Shown here: one piece after another, positions 19,289 through 41,759 of the stretch
Layout: each line of letters opens with the position of its first letter
How positions within the stretch are numbered: position 1 is the first letter of the stretch
Origin: a virus
Lineage: Duplodnaviria > Caudoviricetes
Direction: 5' to 3' (one strand)
Virus record (IMG/VR): IMGVR_UViG_3300021399_000103
Location: 112,420-176,419 of that record
Length of the DNA: 64,000 nt
Made by a program: the position numbers and the translations under genes
Notes under the pieces: generated by a model
Seen by the model: only the letters and a program-made list of their open reading frames with translations
Told to the model about the DNA's origin: nothing
Databases searched by the model: none

Positions 19289-19501
19289 TTACGATTTAGG
19301 CGGTGGTTGGCGGCCGGCTTGGCTATAGCGTTCCAAAATGCCGTCCAATTCATTATGTATAATATCCAATTTATTTTTTAGTTCCTCATTTTCTCTCTGT
19401 ATCTTTTCGTTAATTCCAAGCAGGAGATAGCATCCGATCAACAGAAAAATTGATAAAATTATAAGTAAAATCATTAGCTGATCAATAGTAATAGTAAGCA
19501 T
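19289..19501 (-). CDS. Small membrane protein
   Basis: N-terminal hydrophobic helix. Confidence 0.5.
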   Translation of the reverse strand: MLTITIDQLMILLIILSIFLLIGCYLLLGINEKIQRENEELKNKLDIIHNELDGILERYSQAGRQPPPKS

Positions 19502-20046
19502 TATTGTTTCCTTTCTTTTATTTCTGAAATAATCTGTTCAATATTTACAGGGAACCCATTATGAGCATCCACTTCACAATGATAAATAAGCCCTTTATCA
19601 AAATCCGCAAATGGGTCTGTTGTATGAGTATGACCGCAAAGATTAATTGTAGCAGTTCTTTTATAGTCATCATAGTTAGAGCATAATGTTGGATAATGTG
19701 ATAGATAAAGATGATGCTTATGCACTTTAATTACATTAGCATATGTAATTTCCATTATATTTGTCGTATGATAAAGATAAGCATTAACTCTTCTATCGCT
19801 ATCGTGATTTCCTCTAACAATAAAGATATTTCCATTTAATTGACGCAAGCAATTTATGCCATCATCTAAATCTCCAAGCGTAACATCACCAAGATGATAT
19901 ACGGTATCACCAGGAGAAACAACACTATTCCACTTCTGGATTAAATCTTTATTCATTTCTTCAACTGTGTTGTATCCACGCGCCGCATAGATAAAATCTT
20001 TATTATGGTTGAAATGAGTATCGGATATTACAAAAATATTATCCAT
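19501..20046 (-). CDS. Calcineurin-like metallophosphoesterase
   Basis: SDTHFNH, HLGD, GNHD, SHYP, GHTH. Confidence 0.9.
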   Translation of the reverse strand: MDNIFVISDTHFNHNKDFIYAARGYNTVEEMNKDLIQKWNSVVSPGDTVYHLGDVTLGDLDDGINCLRQLNGNIFIVRGNHDSDRRVNAYLYHTTNIMEITYANVIKVHKHHLYLSHYPTLCSNYDDYKRTATINLCGHTHTTDPFADFDKGLIYHCEVDAHNGFPVNIEQIISEIKERKQ

Positions 20047-20533
20047 AGCTAATCACCTCGATTTTTACATTTTCAAGACTTAAAAAATCATTAACAGAAG
20101 GCCGGCGATATGAAGCCGCCATACTTCTAATTGAATCTTCTGGCACTCTTTTCATTTCTTCTCTTGGAGCATTTCTTTCTAAGCACACTTCAAGAGGTGT
20201 TTCGATAGCAACAAAATCAATTTCTTCAAAATCATTGCGGTTAATATTATAGAGCAATTTCCATCTTGAAGAGTTGTTAAGATGGGTAGCATCTGCCCAA
20301 ATTACATCATATTTTCCAATTCCGTTGTTAATTCTATTACAGAACTCATTGAATACTTCTTTTTCTTTTGAGAAGTAAGGAATGCCAGGAGTAATCATTG
20401 AAAAACGAATTTTATCGCGTGATACTATAAGATCTTCTGGATTCGCATGTTCTTTAATATAACTGGATTTGCCTGATGCCGGAACTCCGCACATTACTTT
20501 TAGTATTGTCATTTTCAAAATCTCCATTCTCAA
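20039..20533 (-). CDS. Polynucleotide kinase-like P-loop protein (AAA_33)
   Basis: CGVPASGKS, VSRDKIR, DATHL, CLERN. Confidence 0.85.
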   Translation of the reverse strand: MRMEILKMTILKVMCGVPASGKSSYIKEHANPEDLIVSRDKIRFSMITPGIPYFSKEKEVFNEFCNRINNGIGKYDVIWADATHLNNSSRWKLLYNINRNDFEEIDFVAIETPLEVCLERNAPREEMKRVPEDSIRSMAASYRRPSVNDFLSLENVKIEVISYG

Positions 20534-21069: not shown

Positions 21070-22206
21070 TTATTTTAAGAAATCTGGTAATTCATAATCT
21101 GGTAACAATTTGATAATTCTACTCAATTCAGCACCAGAATGAATGAAATCATCGGCATTTAATTTATTTCCAAGAGACTTAAATCCAAAATATGCTAATT
21201 TATGATCTTTAATTGCTTGTGCTACTGGTTTACGCTCGTGAGAGTATTCTTCATATAAACTTCTTACCATAACTAAGAAACGATCAATCTCCCATTTAAG
21301 AGTTTCAATTTGATATTGATAAAATCTAATTTGAGCGCCATAAGCATGATTACTAATATCAACTCTATCCCAGGTATTATCTAAAGCAAGTGAAACTGCG
21401 GTATCTTTAGATAACAAATAAGAGCCATTATTCCAGTCATGATGCGCTGCTAAATACTCTGGTGATTTGATTTTAATACGATGCCAATTTTTATCCACAA
21501 CAACAAAGCCTTCAGCATCAACATGAGAGGCGCAATTATTTAGAGCAGCGGCTGCCTTAATAGCATCTTCAAAAGTTGAAATTGAATATTCTTTTGGTTT
21601 CTGAACACCAATATTAAGATTATATTCGTTGCCAGTAATATTGTTACGAGTTCCAGTATGATATAATTTAATTTCTGGATATTCAACCACAATTTTATTA
21701 TATGGTGAAACTAATTCAAAAATATAAGTATAATCATGAGTTAATGCTTCAAAAGGAATATCTTTATAGTTTTTAGCAGAAACAATTATATCATAAAAAG
21801 TTTTATTAAAACCTTGAACATCGGCATTACGAGCATCAATAACTCCATTAGTTGCCCAGATCCATTCATCATTAAACCAATAGAGTTTAACAATAGAACC
21901 ATCTACTTTTTCTTGAACTCGTGCAGATGCCCAATCAATGTTATCAACATATGATTCATTATGATTACCGAATTTGCGGAAAGGCCAGCAGACAACATCT
22001 AAAGTATCAAGATTGATAATAATACCTCTTGCTTCTTGAACTATTGGATCAGAAAAATCGCAATCAATACTATAATTAAAAATAGCACGATAATCATTAG
22101 GAGCAAACTTGATTTTGATATTTTTTGCTTCAAGTAATTCTTTCCAATCATTTGGATGATTTCTTATGAATTGTACAATTAAAGATTTTTCATTCATTTT
22201 TATCAC
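21070..22206 (-). CDS. T4 Rnl1-like RNA ligase
   Basis: EARG, KFGN, EKVDGS (motif I), FEL, EGFVV (IV), RIKIKS (V). Confidence 0.88.
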   Translation of the reverse strand: MIKMNEKSLIVQFIRNHPNDWKELLEAKNIKIKFAPNDYRAIFNYSIDCDFSDPIVQEARGIIINLDTLDVVCWPFRKFGNHNESYVDNIDWASARVQEKVDGSIVKLYWFNDEWIWATNGVIDARNADVQGFNKTFYDIIVSAKNYKDIPFEALTHDYTYIFELVSPYNKIVVEYPEIKLYHTGTRNNITGNEYNLNIGVQKPKEYSISTFEDAIKAAAALNNCASHVDAEGFVVVDKNWHRIKIKSPEYLAAHHDWNNGSYLLSKDTAVSLALDNTWDRVDISNHAYGAQIRFYQYQIETLKWEIDRFLVMVRSLYEEYSHERKPVAQAIKDHKLAYFGFKSLGNKLNADDFIHSGAELSRIIKLLPDYELPDFLK

Positions 22207-38741: not shown

Positions 38742-38942
38742 TTAAGAGTTTTTATTTATAACATATAAAAGAACAATAATAGTTATTACAAATTCAATAA
38801 TGAATGGAGATAAGATTACCCACCAACTATAATCAATAACCCCACAAAGTTTCATAGTAATAAGAGATATCTCTAAAGCATCAATAAAATTTAAACCTCT
38901 ATTATTACTATTATTTTCCGATGTGACTTTCCATTTGCTCAT
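38742..38942 (-). CDS. Small membrane protein
   Basis: LKLCGVIDYSWWVILSP-type hydrophobic motif. Confidence 0.6.
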   Translation of the reverse strand: MSKWKVTSENNSNNRGLNFIDALEISLITMKLCGVIDYSWWVILSPFIIEFVITIIVLLYVINKNS

Positions 38943-39438
38943 AATTAAATTCTCCAATCTCAATATTTTCATTTAATACTTTTATAGCTAAATCAGCTTT
39001 TTCCGCAGTCAACCCAAGATTATACCAATCAGTTTTTACTAAATGCTTATCAATATCACATTCCTTAAAATCTGGAAAATACTCATCATCTAAAACGACC
39101 CAGGCTTCTGGTTTATATTTTTGAACAGAAGATTTAATTCCATGACCTCTATAATATAAATCATTTTCCCAAGTGCGATTTAAGATAGAAAGTCCAACAG
39201 CAGAAAATCTTTTATCAATCTCATTGCCAAAATCATCTTGAAAATCTTTATCTAATGGATCTTTAAACCAACGAGTTTTCCAAGTTGATGTTAAAATAAT
39301 TTCTGCATTAGTCTCATCAATAATTCGTTTTAATTGTTGAAGTTTATCCTCATCTATACCAACATAAACATCATATATATATATTGGAGAGGAATCACAA
39401 TTTAAAACGCCATCTATATCTAAATAAACTATTTTCAT
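38911..39438 (-). CDS. HAD phosphatase, Swiss-army-knife RNA-repair type
   Basis: YLDIDGVLN, ILTSTWK, VVLDD, GLT. Confidence 0.85.
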   Translation of the reverse strand: MKIVYLDIDGVLNCDSSPIYIYDVYVGIDEDKLQQLKRIIDETNAEIILTSTWKTRWFKDPLDKDFQDDFGNEIDKRFSAVGLSILNRTWENDLYYRGHGIKSSVQKYKPEAWVVLDDEYFPDFKECDIDKHLVKTDWYNLGLTAEKADLAIKVLNENIEIGEFNYEQMESHIGK

Positions 39439-39683
39439 TCCTATCACCTCTCTTTGTATATATATTATAACATATTTTTTTATAAAAATAAAAAAAACTC
39501 CTTTCAACAAAAGTGAAAGGAGTTTTATAATTACGCTCTATATTATTAACAATATTAGCTATCACTAATAATAATGATTTTTTAATTTATTAGTATCTTT
39601 TTCAAAACCCAGTTTTCCATATAACAAAATAGGATTTACTTTAATAAACTTCGCCGCATCCCAAATATAGGCATTATTTTTAT

Positions 39684-40030: not shown

Positions 40031-40102
40031 AGCGCCATAAGGGAGTCGAACCCTTGTTTCCAGCTTGGAAGGCTGAAGTATTAGCCATTATACGAATGGC
40101 GC
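40031..40102 (-). tRNA. tRNA-Gly(UCC)
   Basis: Loop CTTCCAA. Confidence 0.92.
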
Positions 40103-40133
40103 AGAAATAAGTCCTATTGGACTTAAAACTTAA

Positions 40134-40885
40134 TAGGCTGAGAGAATTGACCTTTTATACCTGCGTCTTATGCGGTTGGCCGCACGTTCTCACACTCAAC
40201 TTTTCAGCGAGTAACAGGCATGGACTCTGATCTTGCGAAGACCAGTAGAATCTTACATAGTTCATTATAGCGTTCCTTTTATTGCCCAACCTCTTGGAAG
40301 AGTTCAATACGTCCCCGCATTTATTGACGACAATTACTTGTACTTACTCACTCTATAACTTGCGGCTTAGTGGTGTCTCCATATTTCAGGAGGATAAGTC
40401 CATTTTTCTGAAACTATGTCCAGCACACTTTTGCTTTGTATACTTAATCTGTAAAATTGATTTTCCACTGTCAATTTATTATTCAAAAGTGTTGTTCCGA
40501 TTTACTGCGCGATGAGGTGCTGGTTTGGGGTCCGTGCCTTTTGAGCATAGCCCGCCCATCACCGTGCTGCTTTCATGCCACTTACTTGCTTCAATGTCGG
40601 CGCATGGCGTTTCGTCTAACACGCCGGCGCATTGATTATCCCAGCACTAACCTTTGGCGATGTTCGTACCAGGTAACATATCATATTATCATTATTTTCA
40701 TAACTTATTCCCATCCCAATCTTTCTCGAAGGCATAGGACTGCCGCATACATTCCCTCGTCTGCACGTTGAGAGAAGCGGACACAATATTATATGGCTTT
40801 CTGTGGAGTCAGTTTTCTAACCGCAGACTACGTTACTTCCTGCTTTAGCCCATCGCTGGGTTATCCTAAGGTGCCGAAGCCGCAC
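40134..40885 (-). ncRNA. Large structured ncRNA, GOLLD-like
   Basis: ~750 nt of raised GC with no ORF, between a promoter and tRNA-Gly; segments TGCTCAAAAGGCACGGA, AAAGCAAAAGTG and 3' TCTCAGCC recall GOLLD (from memory). Confidence 0.6.
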
Positions 40886-40886
40886 C

Positions 40887-40939
40887 GAAACATTAGTTGG
40901 TTATCCAGGGTCGCCACGTGGAGGCTGTTTCTTGACCCC
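40887..40939 (-). ncRNA. Minimal HDV-like (theta-type) self-cleaving ribozyme
   Basis: P1 GGGGTC/GACCCT (G.U), P2 GAAACA/TGTTTC, P3 GCC-TCCACGT-GGC, P1.1 CC/GG, J4/2 ..CTAA. Confidence 0.8.
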
Positions 40940-41212
40940 ATTGCCCTCAATGTAAGCTGAGGGCGCATATATGCTAACGTCTTGACCCCGACGACAGGGA
41001 GTAATTTTTACCGAGCTTATTACTATCTGCATCGAACCAACGCCTAGAAGTTGGATAAAAGTTAATATTTCCCATATGGATTAACTTTTTCAGCTTACTT
41101 ATATATTTTAACAAATTTTTTTATTTTTGTCAAAATATATTTTAGTGGTTTTATCCCTTTTCGTTATAACCACTTTACTCTACGGCATCTCGCTTAGTGG
41201 GAATAGAGTTAG

Positions 41213-41289: not shown

Positions 41290-41672
41290 GAATTTGAACT
41301 ATTGGTAGCTATCCAGTTTAGGTTTACGTAGACCGACTCCCTGGGCCTAGCTAAGCCTACACACCACGTCAAGGTTGTTCAATTTGTGTAGGTGTCAAGC
41401 CTTCTGCAAAGGAGACCAATCCTCATCTATCGTCGTGGATGTTTCACCACTAAGATGGCTACTGACTTGACAGGTCAATATGTGCCATACATTCCGGGTT
41501 AGACACGTTGCCCGTAGACTTATTGATTAAAGTCCCGGTCTAGTCAGGACAGAGAACGAATAGCCGTTATCTCTATTCACGCACTATTCTAAATGGTTTT
41601 CCTAAGTACAGTTTCCTTGCCATCCCGATGCATTTATATACCGAGCCAGGACAGACGCGGTTTGCGTACGCA
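41290..41672 (-). ncRNA. Unassigned ~380-nt structured RNA
   Basis: No ORF; helices CCTACAC/GTGTAGG, AGAGATAACG/CGTTCTCT, GTCC/GGAC. Confidence 0.45.
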
Positions 41673-41673
41673 G

Positions 41674-41759
41674 ATAAGATAATTAAGCCTTTGTCCTCTT
41701 GGCTACCCGGCCCTTTCGGGCCAGGGTGGGATTCGAACCCACGATATTAACTATCTTAT
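41674..41759 (-). ncRNA. Circularly permuted tRNA mimic with GAAA-capped acceptor stem (YrlA-like), without CAGCAA
   Basis: ATAAGATAGTTAA..GTGGG-TTCGAAT-CCCAC CCTGGCCC-GAAA-GGGCCGGG TA GCC-AAGAGGACAAA-GGC TTAATTATCTTAT. Confidence 0.82.

Follow-up and report, generated by a model that had tools for sequence, protein, structure and literature searches.

What does a minimal HDV-like ribozyme do at the head of a large non-coding phage RNA of the GOLLD family? The question is raised by the window analysed here, the whole stretch of 64 kb that closes a linear phage record of 176,419 nt (94% complete), whose positions serve as coordinates below; the runs containing its sequence were ruminant and unspecified gut metagenomes. 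From sequence comparison, we consider it likely that the ribozyme is active and punctuates a phage non-coding RNA operon, replacing the tRNA or promoter that forms the 5' boundary of GOLLD elsewhere.

The ribozyme occupies 40939-40887 on the minus strand, with predicted cleavage between 40940 and G40939 and with C40896 at the catalytic position. The nested double pseudoknot proposed in the first-pass annotation, with a G.U at the cleavage site and a J4/2 cytosine, was recovered with all its helices located on this strand: P1 (40939-40934 with 40912-40907, 6 bp) opens with G40939.U40907 and is followed by a J1/2 of 2 nt, P2 joins 40931-40926 to 40892-40887 (6 bp), P3 joins 40925-40923 to 40915-40913 (3 bp), L3 comprises 7 nt, P1.1 pairs C40921/C40920 with G40905/G40906 (2 bp), an 8-nt loop stands in the P4 slot, and C40896 is the first base of J4/2. 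With P4 absent and a P1 of only 6 bp, the ribozyme is minimal. An HDV-like descriptor run over all 176,419 nt returned two matches, 40939-40887 and 41392-41294, and its strict version the former alone; 12 locally shuffled genomes gave 0-1 loose and 0 strict matches, and the local region, shuffled 2000 times, never adopted the fold. When the descriptor was relaxed to allow any P1.1 pair and a J1/2 of up to 60, it produced 5-14 chance matches per shuffled genome, and in this form it was therefore limited to short regions, each with its own shuffles. Rfam scores lay under cut-off for both the CPEB3 (E=0.009, 21.9 bits, cut-off 35) and the HDV-F-prausnitzii model (21.3 bits, cut-off 44), which is no argument against the fold, since the HDV-type models are narrow and contain P4. 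The ribozyme is not behind a tRNA, as also noted in the first pass; the nearest upstream tRNA-like gene (CAU, 41285-41213) ends 273 nt off, beyond the promoter.

On the downstream side, P2 is followed without a spacer by the first hairpin of GOLLD, whose opening base is 40886. The conserved 3' domain of GOLLD (40567-40135, minus strand) matches the whole Rfam model RF02032 (model positions 1-416; 83.9 bits, E=1e-21), and its variable 5' domain (40886-40568, minus strand) could be aligned across seven loci, with GOLLDs preceded by tRNA-Met or a promoter among them. This match and the hairpin adjoining P2 bear out the earlier proposal that the ribozyme heads a genuine GOLLD-family RNA. Although the score is below the RF02032 gathering score of 150, other gut-phage GOLLDs tested reached 71-107 bits, which points to a divergent GOLLD subfamily. 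The RNA measures 752 nt plus the ribozyme, near the 800 nt expected, and lies within a phage tRNA cluster (27 tRNA genes were called in the window). It is followed, here and in relatives, by tRNA-Gly(TCC) (40102-40031, minus strand), and an intrinsic terminator-like hairpin (40015-39987, minus strand) marks the operon end in the sequence. In some relatives, genes for HNH or PD-(D/E)XK nucleases lie between GOLLD and tRNA-Gly (L321:551-1177; L342:14369-14806), suggesting homing at this locus, and a tRNA-Leu is found inside the GOLLD linker of another locus (L254:4847-4920), as reported for some GOLLDs. BLASTN against annotated phages yielded short GOLLD-motif and tRNA matches only, and none for the GOLLD of L254; a loose GOLLD pattern search gave mostly chance matches. 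Two scans of genome contigs returned no GOLLD locus, one chance match lying inside a Nostoc coding sequence, and thus no host was identified; its CIRCE and Rex boxes hint at a Gram-positive one.

Upstream, the promoter expected from the first pass near ~41100, some 160 nt away, and the hairpin GCCCTCA/TGAGGGC ahead of the ribozyme were both located on the minus strand. The promoter is of the sigma-70 type with an extended -10 (41133-41105; -35 at 41133, -10 ending at 41105), shows 11 of 12 consensus matches and is kept in 8 aligned relatives, with a predicted transcription start at ~41098. The 7-bp hairpin (40964-40943) ends 3 nt ahead of the cleavage site, is invariant in 8 relatives and has a pair probability of ~1.0. 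It terminates a structured, uncatalogued leader RNA of ~159 nt, here called leader X (41098-40940, minus strand), which matched no Rfam family and is present in one copy in the genome. In 8 relatives, 97.9% of the cells in leader X helices are paired, 4 pairs in two hairpins carry two-sided changes, and insertions of 40-55 nt occur in some. Judged by this conservation, leader X is a structured RNA in its own right and no throw-away spacer. The terminal-hairpin loop and the 5' end of the leader are complementary, and the invariance of this complementarity neither proves nor disproves their pairing; a possible kissing interaction in the leader is weakest in the window strain. Pairing between the leader and the ribozyme loop was also predicted but dropped, because the leader strand concerned sits in a covarying hairpin. 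Flanking sequence controls the HDV ribozyme, as with P(-1) of HDV (PMC4615214), and by analogy the terminal hairpin is a possible P(-1)-like insulator.

Loci of relatives were reached through two neighbouring genes, while a related-locus search with the neighbouring 119-aa protein gave no match. The ribozyme adjoins GOLLD in every relative in which the GOLLD 5' end is covered, with nine distinct ribozyme sequences at the junction (L332 included) and a gap of 0-1 to the first hairpin; these relatives, too, are phages of the ruminant gut. The first-pass annotation had advised looking for the same pairing in relatives, and it is present in these sequences, with compensatory changes in P1 and P2. 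In an alignment of nine close-clade rows, 98.7% of cells are paired, against 28-50% in slid controls, a figure that is not a probability because the rows are mutually related; two-sided changes affect one pair in P1 and two in P2. Insertions among the orthologues fall in the P4 slot, where some carry a P4 hairpin. The G.U first pair is found in 9/9 aligned rows and in L332, and the J4/2 cytosine in all nine junction sequences (one column shifted in L317); together with the P1.1 pairing, they are constant while neighbouring positions vary. A catalytically dead relic, kept as a merely structural 5' domain of GOLLD, would agree with the short 6-bp P1, with an A.C mismatch in P1 of the L312 ribozyme and with the weak Rfam scores, but the retention of G.U, P1.1 and the cytosine in all nine sequences amid variable neighbours speaks against it, and we regard it as extremely unlikely.

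The exchange of its surroundings also speaks for a ribozyme that belongs to GOLLD. In three relatives (L130, L319, L323) the order is leader X, a ribozyme of C-G type, a second RNA of ~140 nt, called RNA Y (L319:2860-3000, L323:2660-2800, L130:5385-5524), the orthologous ribozyme and GOLLD. A ribozyme of one subtype or the other comes after leader X in every case. RNA Y is closed by a helix between its 5' and 3' ends, ends 3-4 nt ahead of the ribozyme and is preceded by a promoter of its own in L319 and L323; its interior in L130 is unlike that of the other two. In L332 (record G021), a promoter is followed by a ~60 nt AT-rich leader ending in one small hairpin, and then by a ribozyme that is likewise HDV-like but differs in sequence (P1 of 7 bp, a P4 hairpin and a core resembling the F. 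prausnitzii family; 0/2000 local shuffles with the fold) at gap 0 to the GOLLD hairpin. The GyrB of this phage is 56-76% identical (main pieces), compared with 92% for the record of L130. Since the upstream neighbour varies and the distant L332 ribozyme differs in sequence, the ribozyme appears to travel with GOLLD; close relatives not being independent, the deep comparison depends mainly on L332, whose ribozyme could reflect deep orthology or a second recruitment. Other GOLLDs are headed differently: tRNA-Met ends ~10 nt ahead of the first hairpin in L172, L243 and L333, a promoter stands at the head in L254, AT-rich sequence with neither tRNA nor ribozyme in L205, and in L221 tRNA-Met lies further upstream. 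The comparison indicates that the 5' boundary of GOLLD is kept while the means changes among tRNA, promoter and ribozyme. No GOLLD was found within the 10 kb read of a more distant relative (L344), and a further 49 records, most of them with a ribozyme, gave no GOLLD match, the controls among them being silent too.

The window ribozyme also has kin beyond GOLLD. A pattern in which only P3, L3, P1.1 and the loop were fixed, P1 and P2 being left free so that the check was not circular, was searched in viral contigs, and 33 of the 34 distinct matches form both P1 and P2 (non-cognate pairs, 5-6%), with 24 different P1 sequences; the window ribozyme therefore belongs to a real subtype with a 6-bp P1. 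An exact-core search of viral contigs gave a lone match, by chance, inside a coding sequence. None of the 34 members is behind a tRNA, and a hairpin ends 0-5 nt ahead of 20 of them (shuffles, 13%). Members often stand between a hairpin and a ribosome-binding site (L088, L028, L136, L150, L160 and others), with up to four copies per locus, suggesting a general mRNA punctuation in phages. In one contig the subtype is found at the GOLLD 3' end, 2 nt past the terminal hairpin (L330:1901-1955; this GOLLD scores 242 bits, above the Rfam cut-off). The habit of following hairpins, the L330 case and the conservation of a leader X that always precedes a ribozyme would fit a ribozyme selected solely for the 3' end of the upstream RNA, as in theta ribozymes, its place at the GOLLD head being a by-product of operon order. 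We find this unlikely, since the orthologous ribozyme stays with GOLLD despite the swap of the upstream RNA in L130, L319 and L323, and since in L332 nothing but the short AT-rich leader precedes it.

Further RNAs share the minus strand of this non-coding cluster. The second HDV-like fold (41392-41294), which belongs to the upstream transcript, has a C-G first pair, a long P4 and a P1.1 in which U.U accompanies a single G-C pair; it shows compensatory P1/P2 changes in relatives, carries a short conserved hairpin element upstream, and also occurs in the unrelated contigs L290 and L292. It ends just ahead of the tRNA(CAU)-like gene (41285-41213; unusual D arm, Rfam 40.2 bits, missed by ARAGORN), and in relatives it is likewise kept before tRNA(CAU). 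Several relatives keep this gene nearly unchanged, while others have an ordinary tRNA-Met instead. A YrlA-like circularly permuted tRNA mimic (41758-41675; Rfam E=0.0056, below cut-off) is partly covered by RNA contigs and has a tRNA at its position in relatives. Next to it, a further structured RNA of ~270 nt free of ORFs (41660-41393) matches viral contigs L003, L027 and L075 over its first 69 nt and has partial cover in two RNA runs. The tRNA array of another phage contig holds the 6-bp-P1 subtype together with an RNase P class A-like RNA (L158:1736-1970; Rfam E=2.7e-12, below cut-off).

In three metatranscriptomes, from three studies, contigs cover 40086-40925 with no flanking coding DNA, and smaller RNA patches lie at 41080-41127 and 41486-41726. 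One contig spans 40495-40925 and thereby joins ribozyme to GOLLD within an RNA library, and another ends at 40885. Position 40939 is crossed by a DNA contig (40665-41649) but by no RNA contig; because ends cannot be read from contigs and the two stops lie at different positions, the stop before 40939 is a weak hint only. Leader X has almost no RNA-contig cover, which was not counted as evidence.

HDV-like ribozymes cleave at their own 5' edge, and the downstream product would hence be the ribozyme together with GOLLD. In our model, transcription would begin at ~41098, from the promoter seen in the sequence; leader X would adopt its covariation-backed fold, and its terminal hairpin may shield the ribozyme from upstream sequence. 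While the transcript is still being made, the ribozyme would cut between 40940 and G40939 with C40896 and Mg2+, as expected from the family, and the leader X so released would end at a fixed 3' position in a 2',3'-cyclic phosphate. On the other side of the cut, the RNA would bear a 5'-OH on a base-paired G and keep the ribozyme as a compact 5' domain, and host RNase P acting at the 5' end of tRNA-Gly would release its 3' side, giving an RNA of ~805-837 nt whose 5' boundary needs no host nuclease. GOLLD RNA thus probably cuts itself free by means of a fused ribozyme. The first-pass idea that cleavage sets the GOLLD 5' end survives in part: the ribozyme heads GOLLD, is inherited with it and occupies the slot that tRNA-Met has in others, but the first base of GOLLD would not be exposed and the 53-nt ribozyme would remain as 5' domain. 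The companion idea, that a leader RNA is freed, gains from leader X being conserved and structured, with the qualification that the ribozyme would also set the leader's 3' end in theta-like manner.

A regulatory role of the cut has also to be weighed, in which cleavage destabilises or times GOLLD in the way of glmS, or is switched by alternative pairing of the leader. A 10-nt direct repeat of the ribozyme 5' end is present in a leader loop (40989-40980, minus strand), and the pseudoknot-free ensemble favours the decoy P1 (0.6) over the native one (0.38), so that cleavage at G40989 is a conceivable strain-level alternative. The perfect match is not kept in relatives, being imperfect in most and lacking in those with RNA Y ahead of the ribozyme. 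Moreover, the 5'-OH end made by the glmS ribozyme leads to decay by RNase J1 in Bacillus subtilis (PMC11780869), so a stabilising effect of cleavage cannot be assumed; both this and the control of HDV ribozymes by their flanks agree with regulation, as does the Gram-positive host suggested above. Set against these points, G40939 is paired in P1 and offers no single-stranded 5' end, and GOLLD is the best-covered part in the three RNA runs, weak evidence in itself; taken together, we hold a regulatory cut to be improbable, and maturation at the 5' boundary is the reading we retain.

The first-pass annotation had further supposed that a phage kinase, phosphoesterase and Rnl1 act on the ends produced. 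The genes exist, ~19-21 kb off: direct Pfam scans found a metallophosphoesterase (19501-20046), a P-loop kinase (AAA_33, 20039-20533) and Rnl1 (21070-22206), and also a HAD repair domain (HAD_SAK_2, 38911-39510), but action on the ribozyme ends has no support beyond matching chemistry. Repair of tRNAs by enzymes of the T4 Pnkp/Rnl1 type is the standard explanation for such a set, and this phage carries ~30 tRNAs, whose repair accounts for it. That the ends are made for these enzymes, which would rejoin or circularise leader and GOLLD, is in our judgement very unlikely. In its favour, close relatives encode RtcB (L340/L341:2023-3222), and theta-bearing phages are enriched for an RNA ligase family (Kienbeck et al., 2024; PMC10879173); on the other side, the RNA contigs contain no circle or ligation joint, although contigs drop rare forms, and RtcB was not detected in the genome by a family-level search, a weak negative given that the same search missed Rnl1 and the phosphoesterase.

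A ribozyme head bears on what GOLLD does and how it matures. A more speculative proposal, which we consider doubtful, is that the ribozyme, once retained, serves as a functional element of the GOLLD protomer and that self-cleavage, perhaps with subsequent processing by the phage kinase or ligase, licenses or times nanocage assembly; if true, it would define a self-maturing, ribozyme-capped class of GOLLD in which cage formation is tied to the release of a partner RNA. Under the preferred reading of 5' boundary maturation, a change of C40896 to U offers a single-base switch for probing the role of the 5' boundary in GOLLD folding, cage assembly and stability. The analysis has also uncovered an uncatalogued leader RNA.

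Among known systems, theta ribozymes are the nearest (Kienbeck et al., 2024; PMC10879173): they share the P4-less nested double pseudoknot, the J4/2 cytosine, the setting in animal-gut phages and a recoded genome. In line with the link to recoded gut phages named in the first-pass annotation, crude coding density reaches 0.83 when the genome is read in code 4 but only 0.59 in code 11 and 0.64 in code 15; the gain is concentrated in the first 100 kb of the genome (G000; TGA recoding), and ARAGORN called an intron-containing tRNA with anticodon TCA (C1:96747-97015). Code 4 makes up 5.6% of theta-bearing genomes (PMC10879173). The tRNA-associated theta ribozymes cleave <=5 nt from the tRNA 3' end, an adjacency that the window ribozyme lacks, and it differs from them as a subtype with a 6-bp P1; its sequence was not found in the portions of the supplement searched. 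The paper also reports 526 non-tRNA matches without known function, none of them assigned in its accessible part to a large non-coding RNA, and a GOLLD head would give some of these minimal HDV-like ribozymes a concrete job.

As for GOLLD itself (RF02032; Kretsch et al., 2025, PMC12286853; review PMC12990946), the window RNA agrees in the full-length 3' domain match, the length of ~800 nt and the phage tRNA cluster, and departs from the env-38 GOLLD, which lies downstream of tRNA-Met (PMC12286853), in being headed by a ribozyme and scoring below the gathering score. No searchable paper joins GOLLD, HDV and ribozyme, subscription papers and theses lying outside that search, and the titles and available passages of GOLLD papers that mention 'self-cleaving' or 'ribozyme' make no link between them. 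Ribozyme and GOLLD are each of a known kind, and their pairing appears to be undescribed in searchable papers.

Both the parts and the principle of ribozyme punctuation have precedents. The 5' HDV-like ribozymes of the R2 and L1Tc retrotransposons likewise cut their element from a co-transcript and stay as its 5' domain (PMC6765202), but these are eukaryotic retroelements with coding RNA, whereas here the RNA is a phage non-coding one, with no link to a reverse transcriptase seen. Hammerhead and twister ribozymes of bacteria and phages have likewise been proposed to punctuate polycistronic RNA (review PMC6765202), in their case mRNAs and with no defined product, while here the products would be defined non-coding RNAs. 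By analogy, the window ribozyme would resemble a theta ribozyme from the side of leader X and the R2 ribozyme from the side of GOLLD.
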